A program made the translations under genes and the position numbers. Positions 1,316 through 40,400 of a DNA stretch of 64,000 nt are shown piece after piece. The stretch comes from a virus. Position 1 is the first letter of the stretch, and every line of letters begins with the position of its first letter. The stretch lies in the IMG/VR virus record IMGVR_UViG_3300045988_063132, positions 38,776 through 102,775 of that record; one strand, written 5' to 3'. A model generated the notes under the pieces. That model was not told the DNA's origin, did no database searches, and was given only the letters and a program-made list of their open reading frames with translations.

Positions 1316-1632
1316 GTGCCGACAAGTACTGTAAAGCTTATCAATTAATATTAGTGTCTTTACATTTGTAGAGACACTAATACTAGTTAGTGCCGAAAGT
1401 TATTAAACCGAATGGATTTAGTAGGTAATTAAGTTGAATTGACAACTTCCCTCAAGTGCTATATGCCGTAGGGTGGAAAAACAACGTGCCACTGATCATG
1501 TGCCGAAGATCATTACTATTGTTTTAGCTATTGTACTTTATGTCCTGCATAAAAACAATAGGCTCTACTTGTAGAGTTTTATAGTAATGGTTATCAAAAC
1601 ACATATAGAAATTGTGCTTTATGCCGAAGTTT
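1316..1632 (+). repeat. five dispersed copies of an RTGCCGAAG-like motif in an ORF-free region
   Basis: The copies are gtgccgacaag (1316), gtgccgaaag (1390), atgccgtaggg (1464), gtgccgaagat (1499) and atgccgaagt (1621). No ORF of 60 aa or more lies between 1300 and 2100. Confidence 0.45.
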
Positions 1633-2205: not shown

Positions 2206-2308
2206 GAATTCAGGGAACGCTAAACAAAAATGCTCAGAAATGACATTTTTGCATGCCAATCCTGAGCTAAGCATGTAGTACACTACATGAAAGTGCAGAG
2301 ACTACTGG
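2206..2308 (+). other. group-I-intron-like P, Q and R core elements (possible degenerate intron)
   Basis: A P-like element (gaattcagggaac) is at 2206-2218. A Q-like element (aatcctgagc) is at 2258-2267, with a possible cagg/cctg P4 pairing. An R-like element (gtgcagagactactgg) is at 2293-2308. No matching S element (GUAGUC) was found downstream. Confidence 0.3.
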
Positions 2309-2323
2309 AGAACTAAAGTGTTC

Positions 2324-2833
2324 TTAATTACCAGCTAGAGCGCCCAACCCTTCATTGGAAGGTGAAGAGATAGTCCAAGATTCACGAAACTTTTTAAGTT
2401 TCTCCTCAGAAATGAGGTTCCTATGAACCATTCTATGGCAATTAGGACATAAAGTTATTAAGTTTGTAATTTCATTTTTACCACCGTTAGATACAGGTAT
2501 AATATGATGAACATCACAAGAAGTTTTATTCCAACCGCATATTGCACAAGGTTGTAATAATAGAAAATTGTAAAACGATCTAGTAATAGTATTATTAGAT
2601 TTCATTCTTTTACGATAATCTTTTAATTTACAAGCATTTGTACAATACTTTGCTTTAGAAGATTGTGCTTCAAATTCCTGTTCACATACAATACATTTAC
2701 ATTTATATTTCTTTCTATGTAAATTTCTGTATTTAGCAGCACATGAAAGTGAACAAAATTTTGCATTTCCTCTGTTTACCTCTCGTAAATCAGCTTGGAA
2801 TTCATTATTACAATATAAACATTCTTTTTTCAT
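2324..2833 (-). CDS. HNH homing endonuclease with Cys-rich zinc-finger-like region
   Basis: The HNH motif HHIIPVSNGGKNEITNLITLCPNCH is present, with several CxxC pairs. The gene sits in a 1.9 kb otherwise non-coding stretch. Confidence 0.65.
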   Translation of the reverse strand: MKKECLYCNNEFQADLREVNRGNAKFCSLSCAAKYRNLHRKKYKCKCIVCEQEFEAQSSKAKYCTNACKLKDYRKRMKSNNTITRSFYNFLLLQPCAICGWNKTSCDVHHIIPVSNGGKNEITNLITLCPNCHRMVHRNLISEEKLKKFRESWTISSPSNEGLGALAGN

Positions 2834-3074
2834 ATAACTATAACGTATGTGGAGATAAAATGTTCTAATAACTTAAAAGAATCTGTCCCTCCAGCTCCAC
2901 GCTCACAAGAGCTACAAGGGAAAACAAAACTAGGATTTTTGATCGTGTTGACCGTGCGCCAAGTTTTTAAATTTTAGAACGGTCAAAAGGGGCTGCATGG
3001 ATTTGACTAGCAAATTAGAGAGATAAGATAGGTTCATTGTGTGTTTAAATGGCAACACTATGTTTGTCACTGAT

Positions 3075-3097
3075 TATTCTTGCGTAGCGTAAGAATA
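3075..3097 (+). other. perfect 10-bp hairpin (tattcttgcg-tag-cgtaagaata)
   Basis: The inverted repeat is readable directly, with one G-U pair. It contains the CGTAG/CGTAAG motif. Confidence 0.5.
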
Positions 3098-3126
3098 TGA
3101 TGCGTGCTAAATACGAAAGTTAGGGA

Positions 3127-3196
3127 TACTCTTTAGTTCAACAGGTTAGAATCGTAATTTTATTACAGAATGTGGGTTCGAGTCCCACAAGAGTAA
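3127..3196 (+). tRNA. tRNA-like element / probable degenerate tRNA (anticodon loop too short)
   Basis: The acceptor pairs tactctt with aagagta. U8 is present. The D-arm is gttc...gaat. The T-arm is gtggg-ttcgagt-cccac. The anticodon stem gtaat/attac leaves only a 3-nt loop. Total length is 70 nt. Confidence 0.3.
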
Positions 3197-3232
3197 CAAT
3201 TAACTTATGTTTAATTTCTTAAAAGTAATCAG

Positions 3233-13475: not shown

Positions 13476-13547
13476 AGCGGGATGGCGCAAAGGTAGCGCG
13501 TAGCTTTCACGAGGCTGAGGTTGGTAGTTCGAATCTATCTCCCGCAA
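13476..13547 (+). tRNA. tRNA, anticodon CAC (Val by anticodon), no encoded CCA
   Basis: A full cloverleaf was drawn by hand. The acceptor pairs agcggga with tcccgca (A1-A72 mismatch). U8 is present. The D-stem is gcgc/gcgc with loop aaaggta. The anticodon stem is tagct/ggctg with loop ttCACga. The T-arm is ggtag-ttcgaat-ctatc. Confidence 0.6.
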
Positions 13548-13565
13548 CTAATTAACCGTAGTACT

Positions 13566-17033: not shown

Positions 17034-17558
17034 TTGGCTAACATGACTACAACATTTTTGAATAAAAAGGGTAACAATAATAACTTTAACTTTAACACTT
17101 ACGATTTCTTGAATCCGTATTACGAGAAAATCAGTAAGAAAAAAGATGATAATTATATTGATAATCTTCTGACAAAAGCCTTTAAGAATCTGGTTCCTTG
17201 GGCAAAGAAAGAAGATAAGAAAGATAGTATTTATATCATCTTCGGTGATGAACCGACGAAGAAATATACGTTTGAGAAGCCGAGTTTTACAATTACAAAT
17301 ATTTCTCCTACTTCTCTGAATCTGGAATGGAATAAAGCAGCTACACATTTGTTAGAATGTGTATATTATACTAATAATCCTACTTATGATTTTATTATCT
17401 GTGATACACCAATTAAAATTCATGGTAATTATATTCAGGTAGGTTCAGAAATTATTCCGACATTCACTCGTTCTGATTTCTTTACAACTATGAAGAAAGA
17501 AGATCAGATTAATATTTATAATATTGCAGTAGAAATTAACGCTATTTTTGCTGCGTAA
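17034..17558 (+). CDS. hypothetical protein
   Basis: 174-aa ORF. No motif recognised. Confidence 0.4.
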   Translation: MANMTTTFLNKKGNNNNFNFNTYDFLNPYYEKISKKKDDNYIDNLLTKAFKNLVPWAKKEDKKDSIYIIFGDEPTKKYTFEKPSFTITNISPTSLNLEWNKAATHLLECVYYTNNPTYDFIICDTPIKIHGNYIQVGSEIIPTFTRSDFFTTMKKEDQINIYNIAVEINAIFAA

Positions 17559-17576
17559 TTGTTAACAAAACTTTTC

Positions 17577-17625
17577 AGATTCTTTCAAATTTTATCAAAT
17601 TCTTTCGTAACTTATCAAATTATAT
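17577..17625 (+). repeat. three to four direct repeats of TCAAATT(T/C)
   Basis: The sequence reads ctttcaaatttta-tcaaattctttcgtaactta-tcaaattatatc in the intergenic region upstream of the ATPase gene. Confidence 0.4.
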
Positions 17626-17649
17626 CTGGAAAGGTAAAAATATCTTAAT

Positions 17650-17965
17650 ATGATAGTATTACCTACAGAAAAAGTAAAAGCAAAAGTAAATAATCCTAGA
17701 TTTTTGATTATTTACGGTCGACCTAAAACTGGTAAAACTAGTTGTGTAGCAGCTCTAGAGAATAATTTAATTATTGATCTAGAAGGTGGCTCTGAATTCT
17801 TAGATGCATTAGCAGTACAAGCAAGAACTGTTAATGATTTCGCTGAAATTGCAAATGCAATCAGAGAAAAGATCAAAGAAACAGGCAAAAAGCCCTATAA
17901 GTATATTACTATAGATAATGCTACACGACTAGAAGAAATATGTCTATCTTACGCAGGTACGCTCT
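17650..17965 (+). CDS. Sak4-like (AAA_24) recombination ATPase, exon 1 (Walker A and Walker B region)
   Basis: Matches include LIIYGRPKTGKTS, LIIDLEGG and YITIDNAT. The frame is terminated by an intron-borne stop straight after the predicted 5' splice site. Confidence 0.55.
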
Positions 17966-18800
17966 AAATTTATGGAGCGCTATTTAGTAATGAATAGTGT
18001 AAAAGCTTTCTAATTTCTGGAACATTTTACCTTTAAGTACGTTAAAGATACATTTAAAGTAAAAGGTAAAACAATCAGAAGCGAAGCAATGAAAGAAAAA
18101 ACATTAAATAAATATATTGGTAAAACTCATGGTGTATTAACTGTTATAGATTTAGACCATGAAACTTATGATAAAGAAAAACAAAGAAAACGAACTTATT
18201 TTAAATGCAAATGTAATAAATGTGGTAATATAACTATAGTAAGATCAGATAAATTAACTACTAAATATTGGATACCAAAGTGTTGTAATAATTGTGTCAA
18301 TCAACAACAACACGAAACGGCAATAAAATTACATGAAAACGGTATTCCTAGTTATTTTAAAAAAAGAATTAGTTCTATTAAAGGAAATGCAAAAAGTAGA
18401 AATATAAATATGCAATTAACTAATAATGAAATTTATAACATTATTCAAAAACCATGTTTCTATTGTAAAGAAAAAGAAGCATATGGAATAGATAGAATTG
18501 ATTCTACAAAAGATTATACTATAGATAATTGTGTACCTTGTTGTTTTATTTGCAATCGTATAAAAAATAAATATTCAATAGGTGTTTTTCTAGATAAAAT
18601 AAGTAAAATATATAATAATTTTTTCATTGAACGTTCAACGACTATCCCGAAAGGGAGTACATTACAAGCTAATGGTAATGGAAACGGAAGCATTCCTACT
18701 ATTAATTAATAGGGAATATGATATAGTCTAATCTATATGGTGACATATAGCAGTTCATAAGAGAACGTATACAAATTTGCGAATTGTATAGAATATAATG
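17966..18800 (+). mobile_element. group I intron with HNH homing endonuclease ORF (boundaries approximate at the 3' end)
   Basis: P1 pairs exon cgctcU (17960-17965) with intron Ggagcg (17974-17979), giving a U-G at the splice site. A P-like element (taatttctggaac) is near 18010. A Q-like element (aatcagaagc) is near 18076. The R element gttcaacgacta is at 18633-18644. The S element atgatatagtct is at 18718-18729. An omega-G sits at 18800. P10 pairs intron tttat with exon-2 ataaa. Confidence 0.6.
18089..18709 (+). CDS. HNH homing endonuclease (intron-encoded)
   Basis: It has Cys-rich zinc-finger pairs and the HNH-type motif GIDRIDSTKDYTIDNCVPCCFICN. Its 3' end overlaps the R element. Confidence 0.65.
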   Translation: MKEKTLNKYIGKTHGVLTVIDLDHETYDKEKQRKRTYFKCKCNKCGNITIVRSDKLTTKYWIPKCCNNCVNQQQHETAIKLHENGIPSYFKKRISSIKGNAKSRNINMQLTNNEIYNIIQKPCFYCKEKEAYGIDRIDSTKDYTIDNCVPCCFICNRIKNKYSIGVFLDKISKIYNNFFIERSTTIPKGSTLQANGNGNGSIPTIN

Positions 18801-19228
18801 ATAAAGCTCAACCTCAAGGAAAATCTTGGCAAGGTACTGATGTTAGATTGCTTCCACAAGGAGCAGGATATCAATATATTAGACTTGCTGTAAGAAAAGT
18901 TATCGATATGTTTAAAGAACTTACTGATAACTTAATTCTTATTGGTCATACTAAGGATAAAATGATTAATAAGAATGGTGAGGATATGACAGAAATGTCC
19001 TTAGATCTTGTAGGTAAACTAGGAGATATTATATGTGGAGAAGCTGATGCAGTAGGTTTTATGTATCGAAAAGGTAATGAAACAATTATTAATTTCGATA
19101 GTAAAGATGAAACTACAAAAGGAGCAAGAGCACCACATTTGCGTGAGCAAAAAATAGTAATTGCAGAAAGCAATGAAAACAATGAATTAGTATTTCATTG
19201 GGACAGAATTTATTTACCAGAAGTTTAA
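18801..19228 (+). CDS. Sak4-like (AAA_24) ATPase, exon 2
   Basis: The frame is open from 18761. It contains LILIGHTK, typical of AAA_24 downstream of Walker B. The predicted junction reads ...SYAGTL-Y-KAQPQGKSWQG... Confidence 0.5.
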
Positions 19229-19248
19229 GTTAACCAAAATTAAAGAGT

Positions 19249-19860
19249 ATGTATAGTTCCGAAAGAGCCAAGACTATTGTAAAGAAAGACGTAGCACACT
19301 TGTCAGCAGGTATTGAAGATAACGTAATGTTAACTGCAGTAAGATTTGATAAATCTATTAATGGTAATAGTTTTATTGAATTTAAGTTTGAAAAAGAAGG
19401 TAAATTGCTGACGCATACTGAGTGGGAACCTTCTAAGAGATCTGATGAAACTGAAGAAAGTTTTCAGAATAAATGTGATAATCAATTTTCAAGAATTGAA
19501 CAAATTTTGAAATGTTATTATCCTAATGCTGAAGATCGTAAATTTATCGGTGAAAACTTCACTCAGTTTGCTCAATGGGTAACAGAAATGCTGAATAAAG
19601 CAGATTTGACTACGCCATTAAGAGTTAAAATTGTATACAATAATAGTGGTTATACTACATTACCAAAGTATGCAAAGTATACGTTTATTGAACCAATGTC
19701 TTTGGTAAACGAAAATAAATCTGTTATTGTAAAATTAGGTATCGATCAATTCGAGAAGCCTATTGTAGCAGATTTAGAAAAATCTAATCCAAGTCCTTTC
19801 TCTATGGGAAGTTCTATGGATGAAAATAACAGCGCCGATCCTAATGGATTGCCGTTTTAA
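19249..19860 (+). CDS. putative single-stranded DNA-binding protein
   Basis: The acidic C-terminal tail ends in ...DENNSADPNGLPF, resembling the SSB tail DDDIPF. The gene is next to the Sak4-like ATPase. Confidence 0.4.
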   Translation: MYSSERAKTIVKKDVAHLSAGIEDNVMLTAVRFDKSINGNSFIEFKFEKEGKLLTHTEWEPSKRSDETEESFQNKCDNQFSRIEQILKCYYPNAEDRKFIGENFTQFAQWVTEMLNKADLTTPLRVKIVYNNSGYTTLPKYAKYTFIEPMSLVNENKSVIVKLGIDQFEKPIVADLEKSNPSPFSMGSSMDENNSADPNGLPF

Positions 19861-33524: not shown

Positions 33525-34427
33525 CGCTACTACCTTATATCTCTATAAGGGCTAGACTATATCTTCACCTTACGGTGCTCCCCATTTCGCCTTTCGGCTA
33601 CACAGCGTGTGTACGCTGACTCAAATCATATTGAATTTTATGAATCATTGAAGGAACCTGTTCAACAAATGGTTTTACAATGTTTATAAACTTTATTCCT
33701 TCTTTTGTTCCACAGCATAAAGAATAACTGTTTTCTTTTTTGCCTTCGTGAAACATATAAAAATCAATATTCCAAACTTCTTTAAAGTAATCTATTATTA
33801 TTTGTAATTCTTCTTTTGGCATACAAGTTGCAATTTTTATATAGAAACCATGAACTTTACCATTAGTTGTTCTATAATTTATATGTCCATCATCCATATA
33901 CCAAATTGCAATTCCTTTAGCATCAAGTCTATTTAACAATTTTCTATTACCTATTTTTTTATAAGGTTTGTAAAAAACTCTTCTTAAGACCTTTACAAAA
34001 GGTATAATATTTAATTGTGTGTAATAAACTGTTTTACCAGTATTATAACCTTTAACACTGACGTATTCTTTTAAACCGTTGTTTCGTAAACCTGCTTCTT
34101 TAAGTTGTTCTATTTTCCACTCAAGATAATCGCGTTGTTCTTCACAATGACTTAATTTAAATACGTTGTTATTACTTATTGTTCCATCACCAAGTAAAAG
34201 AGCTATTAATAAATTTCTAGATTCTTTAGTTATTTTTGTTTTCATATTTGCTATCCATTTAGGAAGCTTCAGTTGAGTATTAGTCGTTGAACCTTCCGAT
34301 TAGTTATATAGATAACGATCGGCTTGGCTGCTGGTTGCCCAATCCTTTGGGTTTTTACTACGCTTAGTACCTTAGGCTCTAAGGGGTTTCCAGCAATTAA
34401 AGGAGTTTTACTTCAACTATGTTGTTA
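33525..34427 (-). mobile_element. group I intron (903 nt) carrying a LAGLIDADG homing endonuclease in P8
   Basis: P1 pairs exon CUUCGAU with intron GUUGAAG, giving a U-G. P10 pairs intron CAAC with exon-2 GUUG. The P element aattgctggaaac and Q element aaccagcagcc are present. The R element ggttcaacgactaatac is at plus 34278-34294. The S element gaagatatagtctagccc is at plus 33549-33566. The intron ends in G. Confidence 0.75.
33598..34245 (-). CDS. LAGLIDADG homing endonuclease (intron-encoded)
   Basis: Two LAGLIDADG motifs are present: LIALLLGDGTIS and IAIWYMDDGHIN. Confidence 0.75.
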   Translation of the reverse strand: MKTKITKESRNLLIALLLGDGTISNNNVFKLSHCEEQRDYLEWKIEQLKEAGLRNNGLKEYVSVKGYNTGKTVYYTQLNIIPFVKVLRRVFYKPYKKIGNRKLLNRLDAKGIAIWYMDDGHINYRTTNGKVHGFYIKIATCMPKEELQIIIDYFKEVWNIDFYMFHEGKKENSYSLCCGTKEGIKFINIVKPFVEQVPSMIHKIQYDLSQRTHAV

Positions 34428-37400: not shown

Positions 37401-40400
37401 TACATTCTCGGCATAATCGTTTTTAAGGAAATTGTGCTTTTTAGATTTATTTTTTAACTCTTTATAATCTGCAATAGCTTGTTGTAAAACATTCTTATTT
37501 GCAAATGTACCATTTACACCGAATGTTGCTGACCAGTTCTGTTCAAGTCTATTAGAACGTTTATTAACATCAGCGTCACCATAAGTAATAGTATAAGAAG
37601 TTAGCTCTTTACCTTTATCATTGGTATCCTTACCAAAGTAAGCGTTAATAAATCTATTTCTGTGTTTTTTAAACGTATTCCAGAATCTTGTTTTCAACAT
37701 TTCATCCTCGTTACCACTTTCATCCTTAGTGGTAAGGATTTCATACAATTCTGAATACATATTTATCTTACTAGAATCTCCTTTGGCTTGTCTGATAGTA
37801 CTGGTTTCATCTGCTTTTTTCTTCAACAGCTCCAACATTTCATCTATAGACTTTGCATTGTGAATTGTACTAAAGGCATTAAACCAAGCTACATCGGGAT
37901 TTATATATACAGGAAGGAATGTTTCTGGATCTAATGTTTCAGAATCTTTTAATGTTAAAAACATTACTCTAATATCCGCTTGCGCATTTTCTTTTGCTGA
38001 AAATTCATAAGCGGATCTTATTTCATCATTAACTAAGTCATTTAGATCATCTTTTTCCTCTAGTTTAGATTCTACTCTACGTATATTAAATCCTTGCAAC
38101 TTAACATCAATAAGAGGTCTAAACACTGTATCAAAGTTATCAAGTATTTCATTATAAAGATCTACCTTTTCTTCGTAGATAGCTCTTTCTAATTCACCAA
38201 ACGCTTCGTTTTGTGAGGCTGCTAAATGCTTATCTCTGATGTCAATTAGTTGATCTTTTACTGCCTTAAAACTTAATCCTCTCTCTAAACTTTCTATATT
38301 CTGTATACCATTAACATCTATGGTCATAGAAGTTAAAGTACTAACAATATTTCCAAGTAAAGAGCTATTGTAAATTTGATGCAATGTGACTCCATTAACA
38401 GTAAGAGGTGCATCCGCATTTGCATATCTTTGATTAAAATTAGTTAATGCCGCTTTGTTAATCTTAGCAAATTTATATTTACCGTTTTTAATAGCATTAA
38501 AAAATCCATCAATATTATCTATTTTGGTTTTGTTTAAACCTAAGAATGATTTAATAAAGTTTTTAATATCTGAAATAACTCTACCTAACTTACTGTGGGA
38601 ATCGGGAGTATTATTGATAACATCTTCTCGGAAACGTTCAGCTAAAAATTCTTCCACTTCATTATCGTTACGATTAAATAGTGAATATTCTTTTCTAGCT
38701 AAATTGTACATTCTGGCTTGTTCTTCCGGACTCAACAATAATAATGATACTCTATGAAAAGCTTCATGATAAGCAGCACCAGCCGCTGGACGTTCAAACA
38801 AGGTTACACCATCCTCATTCATTATTGACCATGCCCAACCAGGTCTACCAGATTCTCCAATTATACGAATTAATTGATCTACCAATTTAATATTACCACC
38901 AGCTCTTTTACCAAGCATTCTACGATAATTTAATAATTCTTTTTCTAAATCAGAAGTTTGTTTAACATTATCATAAACCTGCATTGATACAGAAGGTTTC
39001 TTACCAAAAGTAGTAAACTTATTTTTTGGTTTTTTTCTAGTAAAACCAATCATTTCATCAGTAATACCGGCAGCTTTATTTAACTCTCTTGGATCTAATG
39101 GAGCGTTGGTAACAGGAGCTTCTTTTACTGGAGATTCTTTGATTTTTCTTTCTCTTAATTTAAGAGTACCTTTACGTATGTCATTATAAATTTCAAAATT
39201 AGGTATAGAATCTGAAATTTGATCATTCATTCTAGATAAGAAATCAATCATCTCATCAGAATCCATTTGATCAAAATTGTTTCTATAGTCATTTACCAAA
39301 TTTTGGTATTCGGCTGCGTCTTTTACATACGCTCCTAATTTAAACGGAGATGTTTCCTTAGTAATCTCAACAAGAGGTTTTTCAGTATCCGTTGCTTTCT
39401 CATCTACTTTTTCTGGCACAGTTTTTACTGGAGAAATTTGTTGAGATGCTTCTACTGGAATTACTTTACCTAAATTTAAAAGTATTCTACTTACCGTATT
39501 CCCATCTGGGAAAGTATAATCCAATAAATTTGATAACTCTTCTTTTGTTATATTCGCACTAGGTATTGCTTTACGTTTTGTCAACAATGATCTAACAGCA
39601 CTATCATACATCAATTTGCTAGATAATGTTGATAAATTATTTATAAGTCTATCATAAACCTCACGTAATTTTTTCACCTCTTCCGTTTGCTCAATGGAAT
39701 CAAAAGGATTATTAGTAAGCAAACCAAAAGTATTTGTATTTTTTGGTTCAGGTTTAGCTGTTTCTTTTCTTTTAGACTCTGCAGAAGGTTTTACAGTTTT
39801 TGGTGGAGCAATTGTAGCCTTTTTAATAGCTTCATAGTACTTGGGATTTTCAATTTGTTTATTTTGTTTGTTGACTGTAACAGTTTTTTGTGTATAAATC
39901 TTTAAACCTGTTTTATCAACAGTAACCAATTTACCCTCATCTTTTACTTTTTCCTGAGCTTCTGGATGTTCACTTTCATATTTTATAAGATCATCTATAC
40001 TCTTGTTATACACATCTACAAGGGCTTTTCTTATATTCTGTGAAAGTTCTTCTTCATTTAACCCTTCAATATTTAACAGTTCTTCTCCTTTTAAGGAAAC
40101 CAATTTAGTTCCTTGTTTTACTAAAGCTGCTTTATTTGCATACTTTTGAGCACCCGGAATTTTTGCAGTTATAGTACTACCGTCTGGTAAATTGTTTATC
40201 TTTTCAGATAAATTTTCTACACTTTTAAATACGATTTCCTCTTTTTCAAAGACTTCAGAAGTTTTCTCTTCCTTCGGAGAAGGAACACTATCTGTAGTAA
40301 TAACTCTCTCGGTTATAGGAATGTTTTGTACTACCAAATAAGATTTTGAAATTAAACCTTTAGATATATCTAAATCAGTACTTAAAAAATCATTATCAAT

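Follow-up and report, generated by a model that had tools for sequence, protein, structure and literature searches.

A predicted group I intron with a PacI-like nuclease gene in the Sak4-like ATPase gene of a Delta-group crAss-like phage

The stretch of DNA analysed here, referred to as the window, comprises 64,000 nucleotides (nt) of the virus record IMGVR_UViG_3300045988_063132 of IMG/VR (positions 38,776 to 102,775 of that record; one strand, 5' to 3'). Its plus strand carries a gene for an ATPase which is read in two separate parts, with 835 nt lying between them and an open reading frame (ORF) for a 206-amino-acid (aa) product lying within these 835 nt. A previous reading of this locus, made from the letters alone and called here the sequence-only reading, had taken the interruption for a group I intron with an HNH endonuclease that splits a Sak4/AAA_24 recombination ATPase. 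The 2.1 kb around the insertion shows 98% identity to the crAss-like phages cr1_1 and cr55_1, the match falling into two pieces with 835 bases of the window left over. Both of these phages originate from human faeces and are classified in the Crassvirales, Suoliviridae, Boorivirinae, and by its identity of approximately 98% to cr1_1 the source of the window is identified as a crAss-like phage of the Suoliviridae, "Delta" group. Positions 17966–18800 of the window very probably represent a mobile phage IA-type group I intron in the Sak4-like AAA_24 ATPase gene of this phage.

The ATPase gene of cr1_1 is a single uninterrupted coding sequence (CDS) of 744 nt. Global alignment with the cr1_1 locus (L001) placed window positions 17400–17965 against 1501–2066 and positions 18801–19500 against 2067–2766, with no further gap. 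As the alignment with this intron-less allele has one gap only, the insertion, which is missing from both cr1_1 and cr55_1, is defined as 17966–18800, exactly the interval of about 835 nt which the sequence-only reading had placed between two ATPase halves (17650–17965 and 18801–19228). The boundaries are free to slide by 1 nt only (A17966 is identical to A18801), and 17965/18801 was chosen because group I introns follow the rule of U before the 5' splice site and G as the last intron base; the insertion is preceded by U17965 and its last base is G18800. This agrees with the terminal guanosine (omega-G) that had been proposed at 18800 ahead of exon 2. The alternative 3' splice sites that had been allowed for, after G18767 or G18779, are both excluded by the intron-less cr1_1 allele.

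When the exons are joined, a 744-nt ORF is obtained whose 247-aa product is equal in length to the cr1_1 protein, the codon across the junction (U/AU, or T/AT in the DNA) encoding Tyr. Both exons are open and about 97–99% identical to the uninterrupted gene. Searched as separate halves, they match the Pfam family AAA_24 at profile positions 5–84 (exon 1; 6.3e-15) and 98–192 (exon 2; 5.5e-11) of 195. The comparison of the fused ORF with AAA_24/Sak4 families, which had been proposed as a check, gave one continuous match for the joined protein (positions 5–191 of 195; 102.9 bits with a cut-off of 27), and PHROG 124, annotated as "Sak4-like ssDNA annealing protein", matches it at 2e-31. Walker A (GRPKTGKT) and Walker B (YITID) motifs can also be read from the sequence. 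The host gene is named on this family annotation as an AAA_24/Sak4-like recombination ATPase, in line with the earlier identification.

Relatives of the insertion were collected by scanning IMG/VR for the conserved P9.1 motif, which gave at least 120 loci. With hidden Markov models (HMMs) for the 5' half and the 3' half, 59 introns could be assembled from matching pairs, and 25 of these were aligned with the P6 loop trimmed. On this alignment 91.7% of cells are paired in the structure drawn (Table 1), compared to 37–45% when the 3' partners are slid by 1–3 columns. Two-sided changes occur at 63 of the 84 pairs, and the observed measures were reached by none of 500 shuffles. Helices P3, P4, P6 and P7 are paired in full across the 25 relatives, with covariation at most or all pairs of P2, P5, P6a, P7.1, P7.2, P8, P9 and P9.2. 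The window intron with its ORF deleted has a minimum free energy (MFE) of -72 kcal/mol (z = -3.84), and its unconstrained MFE fold recovers P2, P4/P5, P6a, P7, P7.1, P7.2, P8, P9 and P9.1.

A search with the group I covariance model had likewise been suggested as a check, and its outcome was mixed. No intron was found when the whole window was searched against Rfam at gathering thresholds, but a permissive search gave a match to Intron_gpI (RF00028) at 18615–18750, restricted to the 3' half (R, P7, P8, S and P9). Six ORF-less relatives, aligned end to end with the window intron, score 94–104 bits on the whole Intron_gpI model (gathering score 50), and the low score of the window copy is attributed to its 531-nt ORF-bearing P6 loop, which parts the two ribozyme halves. 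Every core helix, the P3/P7 pseudoknot and the P4–P6 domain can be drawn in the window copy, with the U.G pair and the terminal G at the boundaries defined by the intron-less allele, and on this structural evidence the insertion is identified as a structurally intact group I intron. The class was assigned from the P7.1/P7.2 hairpins: such an extension marks IA-type phage introns, and by it the intron would be of the phage IA type (IA2-like).

Table 1. Features of the interrupted ATPase locus (window coordinates; percentages and pair counts refer to the 25-intron alignment)
Feature	Position	Strand	Basis or remark
Exon 1, AAA_24/Sak4-like ATPase (ATP_43b)	17650..17965	+	Walker A and Walker B; ends in U17965; Pfam; collinear with cr1_1 to 17965
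Exon 2 of ATPase	18801..19228	+	AU completes Tyr codon U/AU; holds LILIGHTKD; Pfam AAA_24
Group I intron (predicted), 835 nt	17966..18800	+	Not in cr1_1/cr55_1; covarying P1–P9.2; Rfam partial match
Terminal guanosine (omega-G), final intron base	18800	+	Boundary set by intron-less allele
Intron ORF, 206 aa, predicted PacI-like HNH (His-Me finger) homing endonuclease	18089..18709	+	Start at P6 loop, stop in P8 loop
P1	17960..17979	+	Exon CGCUCU (17960–17965) with GGAGCG (17974–17979); wobble U17965.G17974 marks 5' splice site
P10 guide part UUUAU	17969..17973	+	Complementary to exon 2 AUAAA (18801–18805), 5/5 bases in window
P2 hairpin CUAUUU / GAAUAG	17980..17997	+	97.3% of cells paired; two-sided changes at 6/6 pairs
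P3 5' strand GCUUUC	18005..18010	+	Pairs with GGAAGC 18686–18691; 100% of cells paired; two-sided changes at 5/6 pairs
P3 3' strand GGAAGC	18686..18691	+	25-intron alignment
P4	18015–18020 with 18075–18080	+	100% paired; U-A / G-C / A-U covariation at one pair
P5	18025–18031 with 18065–18071	+	Plus apical extension; enclosed by P4; 82% paired; 7/7 pairs covary
P6 (GCG) and P6a 5' strand	18081..18097	+	Pairs with 18619–18634; P6 100% paired; P6a 93%, 5/5 pairs covary
P6a and P6 3' strands	18619..18634	+	25-intron alignment
J6/7 (UCA) and P7 5' strand (A-c-GACUA)	18635..18644	+	C18639 bulged, beside G18640-C18728; P7 100% paired, nearly invariant
P7.1 hairpin UCCC-GAAA-GGGA	18645..18656	+	91–96% paired; all pairs covary; CCC/GGG to CUC/GAG in relatives is compensatory
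P7.2 hairpin CAUUAC...GUAAUG	18660..18680	+	98.6% of cells paired; 6/6 pairs covary
P8 hairpin	18692..18717	+	Loop holds ORF stop 18707–18709; 86.6% of cells paired; 5/6 pairs covary; Rfam alignment agrees
J8/7 and P7 3' strand, S element AUGAUAUAGUCU	18718..18729	+	Invariant GAUAUAGUC; Rfam alignment
P9 hairpin CUAUAUG-GUGA-CAUAUAG	18733..18750	+	GNRA loop; 99–100% of cells paired; 5 pairs covary
P9.1	18753–18766	+	Invariant, never varies among relatives
P9.2	18768–18790	+	100% paired; 7/7 pairs covary

The conserved elements which the sequence-only reading had listed were all located in the intron, namely a P-like element (aatttctggaac, 18012–18023), a Q-like element (aatcagaagc, 18073–18082), the R element (gttcaacgacta, 18633–18644) and the S element (atgatatagtct, 18718–18729). 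The P1 helix it had described as ending in a U-G pair was also recovered, C17960–U17965 pairing with G17974–G17979 with the wobble included, and this splice-site pair is found in 21 of the 25 relatives. P3 forms the long-range pairing that links the two ribozyme halves and P6a reads as 11 bp, while the G18640-C18728 pair of P7 is, from its position, presumably the guanosine-binding pair.

One further observation concerns the exon side of P1. At position 17961 the window has G (codon ACG), whose pairing with C17978 makes P1 complete; a T stands there in cr1_1 and in the four other alleles with the intron, giving a U-C mismatch. Adaptation of the exon to the intron was considered for this base and no claim is made, as it is a single observation and the other four intron-bearing alleles keep T. 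An intron-less allele with G17961 (GGTACGCTCTATAAAGC) was sought in IMG/VR, and the three matches returned (L209–L211) were due to chance, being otherwise unlike the gene.

The ORF within the intron has 92 database homologues, which have neither a Pfam domain nor a name. The PHROGs families matching it are annotated as "endonuclease VII" (1.4e-14) and "HNH endonuclease" (1e-10). A profile of eight intron-encoded relatives matched PacI (3LDY) with E = 9e-7 over ~120 residues, covering both CxxC pairs, and the motif G-I/V-D-R-x-D...Y...N...C-x-x-C-N-x-I/M-K is shared with PacI. The product is predicted to have two Cys4 zinc sites flanking a beta-beta-alpha-metal core, with a Tyr in the omega-loop and no catalytic His; Arg136 stands at the usual position of that His, and little or no variation is seen at Tyr143, Asn147 and the eight Cys. 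The 48 homologues compared agree without exception in their zinc ligands and in the D-R...Y...N...K motif. PacI is itself an HNH (His-Me finger) enzyme without a catalytic His, in which Tyr takes that role (PMC5714182, PMC3384342). By profile and modelled fold, the ORF product is placed in an atypical PacI-like branch of the HNH/His-Me finger superfamily (group 20 of PMC5714182).

The nuclease gene and the ribozyme overlap. The start codon of the ORF (AUG, 18089–18091) lies inside the P6a stem and the ORF runs through R, P7, P7.1, P7.2 and P3' to the P8 loop, so that its final ~24–25 codons (18632–18709) are also the ribozyme core (R, P7, P7.1, P7.2 and P3'). The last ~24 residues are modelled as disordered, with a predicted local distance difference test (pLDDT) score below 50. 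The P7.1 covariation of CCC/GGG versus CUC/GAG in relatives appears in the protein as PKG versus SKE, and an unrelated endonuclease in another member of the intron family (L112) has the same ending, SSTTIPKGST. Besides the window, L003, L014, L063 and L112 are concerned in this observation. Because these residues follow the P7.1 pairing and an unrelated nuclease shares the ending, the tail of the ORF is taken to be shaped by the RNA and not by the protein. The P8 loop and ORF stop (18702–18709) spell TTAATTAA, the PacI recognition site, which is probably a coincidence in AT-rich DNA.

It is tentatively suggested that this ORF and its 90+ unnamed, Pfam-less homologues may form a family of PacI-type intron-encoded homing endonucleases, in which the His is replaced and Tyr acts as nucleophile or general base, with the nuclease gene wired into the ribozyme (start codon in P6a, last ~25 codons in P7–P3') and with a possible switch between splicing and nuclease production; we hold this to be quite possible. 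In the literature surveyed, descriptions of the PacI-type branch are limited to a restriction enzyme, to homologues from giant viruses and to phage genes that are free-standing.

None of the best 80 IMG/VR loci encoding the ATPase is interrupted, and 15 of these have an identity of 97–99%. Elsewhere the intron-bearing allele was found in four assemblies only, IMG/VR contig L127 and metagenome contigs L212, L214 and L217; the other three of six metagenome matches to the junction pattern (L213, L215 and L216) were chance matches. Contig L217 is OJQH01000019, which is given among the Delta-group genomes of Yutin et al. (PMC7886860) with Parabacteroides merdae as predicted host. As most close relatives are without the intron, it is probably mobile. 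The same codon position is occupied in the diverged orthologues L014 and L063, the exon proteins of which are 54–73% and the endonucleases 52–54% identical to those of the window, and the ORF region has a GC content of 23–24% compared to about 30% in its flanks.

Other insertion sites and loss of the nuclease were both observed among related introns. In cr50_1 (L002, NC_055868) the same ATPase gene contains a related intron (2217–3218) with a 264-aa nuclease of the same PacI-like family, inserted after GHTKD, ~158 nt further along the coding sequence and equivalent to window ~18958/18959. In the intron of cr118_1 (L004, 1380–1745) the nuclease gene has decayed to an ORF remnant of 147 nt and the P6 loop measures 93 nt, and its sister intron in cr53_1 has kept an ORF, also of 206 aa. 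Presence or absence at one precise site, combined with an intact ORF, nuclease loss and new sites, is what is commonly seen with homing introns and suggests that homing has occurred here. An intron 3' core with 74.9% identity over 169 nt was also observed in Prevotella phages Lak-B1 to Lak-B9 (e.g., MK250020, 163651–163808). Since these megaphages hold a similar 3' core, the intron family spans very different gut phages.

From these data the following mechanism is proposed. The pre-mRNA would fold into the P1–P9.2 core, in which an external guanosine would attack after U17965, held in the P1 U.G wobble. The second attack, behind the terminal G18800, would come from the freed exon 1, P10 possibly helping to align exon 2, and the ligated message would read ...GTL-Y-KAQ... 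across the junction GCAGGTACGCTCT/ATAAAGCTCAACC, encoding the intact 247-aa ATPase. On unspliced RNA ribosomes would stay out of the ribozyme, because the exon 1 frame (ORF 17650–17967) stops at a UAA (17965–17967; TAA in the DNA) which straddles the 5' splice site. In a mixed infection the 206-aa PacI-like nuclease would most likely cut intron-less alleles around GGTACTCTCT/ATAAAGCTC, the intron-less sequence of the cr1_1 type (...GCAGGTACTCTCTATAAAGCTCAACCTC...) being its expected target, and repair after the cut would copy the intron into that allele (homing). With the start codon of the nuclease gene inside P6a and its last ~25 codons forming the core, a given RNA molecule should be able either to be translated into the nuclease or to fold as the ribozyme, but not both.

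A number of points weigh against this interpretation. Splicing is predicted from sequence and structure, and the window copy falls below the Rfam gathering score (35.8 compared to 50 bits). The P10 pairing between exon 2 AUAAA and intron UUUAU, which had been proposed from the sequence and can form in the window, is present in 57% of cells across the relatives, the exons of which differ; as this shows no clear conservation, the pairing is treated as a feature of the window copy only. Pfam, including HNH (PF01844), gave no match to the 206-aa ORF (among the relatives the best E-value was 0.028, with matches in 3 of 8), so the earlier description of an HNH ORF holds at the level of the superfamily, through the PacI profile and the predicted fold, but not for the Pfam HNH family. 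With neither a Pfam match nor the canonical catalytic His, nuclease activity is assumed from PacI. Divergence among the intron-bearing alleles is mosaic and does not establish a lower age for the intron compared to the exons: the L127 intron differs by 0.6% compared to 2–3.5% for its exons, while in L212 and L217 the intron is not less diverged.

Some of these points would be expected if the intron splices with an inactive or disused nuclease and is inherited vertically with occasional loss, without homing. We consider this unlikely, although it accounts for the Arg136 at the His position, the Pfam result, the intron-bearing alleles whose divergence is similar to or above that of the exons in some pairs, and the cr118_1 relative that has lost its nuclease ORF. 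The ORF of the window is nevertheless intact, and the residues held invariant in its homologues are those which PacI uses with Tyr in place of His. Moreover, the intron is a minority allele among genomes with 97–99% identity, yet orthologues with no more than 54–73% identity have an intron at this very site, which fits repeated invasion. Much less probable is a decayed, non-splicing intron in an ATPase pseudogene. The Rfam score of the window copy and the indirect case for splicing could be read in this way, but the core helices are all intact (including the invariant P7, the R and S elements, the U.G pair and the terminal G), the exons have remained open and close in sequence to the uninterrupted gene, and the long P6 loop explains the low score. 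Scarcely credible is a free-standing endonuclease gene that divides the ATPase gene, each half being translated on its own and the RNA remaining unspliced, even if RefSeq gives the comparable cr50_1 locus as three CDS ("nucleotide-binding protein", "HNH endonuclease" and "hypothetical protein"), since no start codon is present where exon 2 begins (its earliest in-frame start is TTG 18848, 16 codons in) and the non-coding flanks of the ORF are a covarying ribozyme that begins and ends precisely at the boundaries of the insertion. Readings of the insert as an intein, a group II intron or a split gene were likewise rejected, given the stops in the exon frame, the lack of a reverse transcriptase or domain V, and the exon 2 without a start codon.

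A second insertion, of 903 nt (34427..33525, minus strand), occurs in the RNA polymerase (RNAP)-containing giant gene of the window. It is not present in cr1_1, follows a U and ends in G, and its removal restores a single open frame. Its ORF is of the LAGLIDADG type (34245..33598) and is placed after P7, and there is no P9.1/P9.2. The sequence-only reading had noted that the R element of the Sak4 intron is identical to that of the RNAP intron, and a second exact copy does occur at 34281–34292 on the minus strand; as R is invariant in all 25 related introns, sharing it implies no specific relationship. The further suggestion that the two introns are related stands to the extent that both appear to be real group I introns of the same class, but the relationship is only distant, the 5'-half HMM giving 19 bits for the RNAP-gene intron versus 107 for the Sak4 intron, the 3'-half HMM missing the former, and the ORFs differing in type and place. 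A permissive Rfam search (E ≤ 1) found nothing at the RNAP-gene intron. From its boundaries and restored frame, the RNAP-gene insertion is regarded as a real group I intron and a distant relative of the Sak4 intron. A LAGLIDADG intron endonuclease in the transcription block is among those mentioned by Yutin et al. (PMC7886860).

The gene order at the ATPase locus is DnaB-like helicase, hypothetical protein, AAA_24 ATPase, hypothetical protein and DnaG-type primase. Yutin et al. 2021 (PMC7886860) place ATP_43b in the Delta-group replication block with DnaB on one side and primase on the other, in the same order, and the interrupted ATPase is identified by this order as ATP_43b in crAss nomenclature. 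Elsewhere in the window are a full-length match to RAGATH-22 RNA (RF03098) at 1319–1498 (+), scoring 125.6 bits with a gathering score of 120.3, and two phage-encoded tRNAs, tRNA-Lys(ttt) at 3127–3197 (+) and tRNA-Val(cac) at 13476–13548 (+). A Val tRNA is listed for the near-identical genome OJQH01000019 in a table of Yutin et al. (PMC7886860).

In terms of annotation, once the exact splice junction is known the Sak4-like ATPase can be read as a complete 247-aa protein, whose gene public records fragment or leave unnamed. The analysis also provides a nucleotide-level, covariation-tested structure for an intron family with a wide distribution among gut phages (crAss-like phages, Lak megaphages, at least 120 IMG/VR loci), and places a protein family hitherto lacking annotation in the PacI-like HNH branch, a possible source of new rare-cutting enzymes. 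Knowledge of group I introns or of crAss-like phages is left unchanged by it, their intron load having been reported in 2021; the intron is real and is ordinary for Delta-group crAss-like phages.

Phage introns of the IA2 type with an ORF in a peripheral loop include those of T4 td (I-TevI) and nrdB (I-TevIII), Staphylococcus phage Twort and Bacillus phage SPO1 (I-HmuI). The window intron resembles these in its core with P7.1/P7.2, U.G pair, terminal G, R/S consensus, ORF out of P6 and location in a gene of DNA metabolism. It differs from them in having a PacI-like enzyme in place of a GIY-YIG or canonical HNH one, in an ORF that continues through P7–P3' and stops in L8, and in its host, a crAss-like phage infecting Bacteroidota. 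A blastn search with the intron 3' core matched 666 phage records, including Staphylococcus, Bacillus, Enterococcus, Brochothrix and T4-like phages. Another group I intron endonuclease is I-PfoP3I of cyanophage Pf-WMP3 (PMC3428280). Sister introns interrupt the same gene at a second site in cr50_1, and the DNA polymerase gene in cr53_1 and cr118_1. They have 3' cores with 75–78% identity and, except in cr118_1 where it is deleted, nucleases of the same family with 35–40% identity to the window ORF; their P1 guide sequences differ, as do their insertion sites.

The predicted nuclease shares with PacI (PDB 3LDY/3M7K; His-Me finger group 20, PMC5714182) a beta-beta-alpha-metal core, two Cys4 sites, the Arg at the His position and the conserved Tyr. 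Unlike PacI it is intron-encoded, with an extra N-terminal beta-rich part (about residues 1–60) and a tail, disordered in the model, whose codons are the ribozyme core, and its target would presumably be a long asymmetric exon junction and not TTAATTAA. PacI-like HNH nucleases of variable presence are also found in lactococcal Skunavirus phages and are regarded as homing enzymes; these are free-standing and explicitly not in introns (PMC12724721), whereas the window ORF lies in one. The most direct precedent is Yutin et al. 2021 (PMC7886860), where ATP_43b of Delta-group crAss-like phages is reported to contain group I introns, found via endonuclease domains. The likeness covers phage group and target gene, and their genome OJQH01000019 carries this very intron, so that the kind of element, its host group and its target gene have already been published. 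As far as its text on the ATPase intron goes, no splice sites, RNA structure or endonuclease family are given there, and new here are the exact junction, a secondary structure that has been tested, the placing of the nuclease as PacI-like and the overlap of its gene with the ribozyme core.

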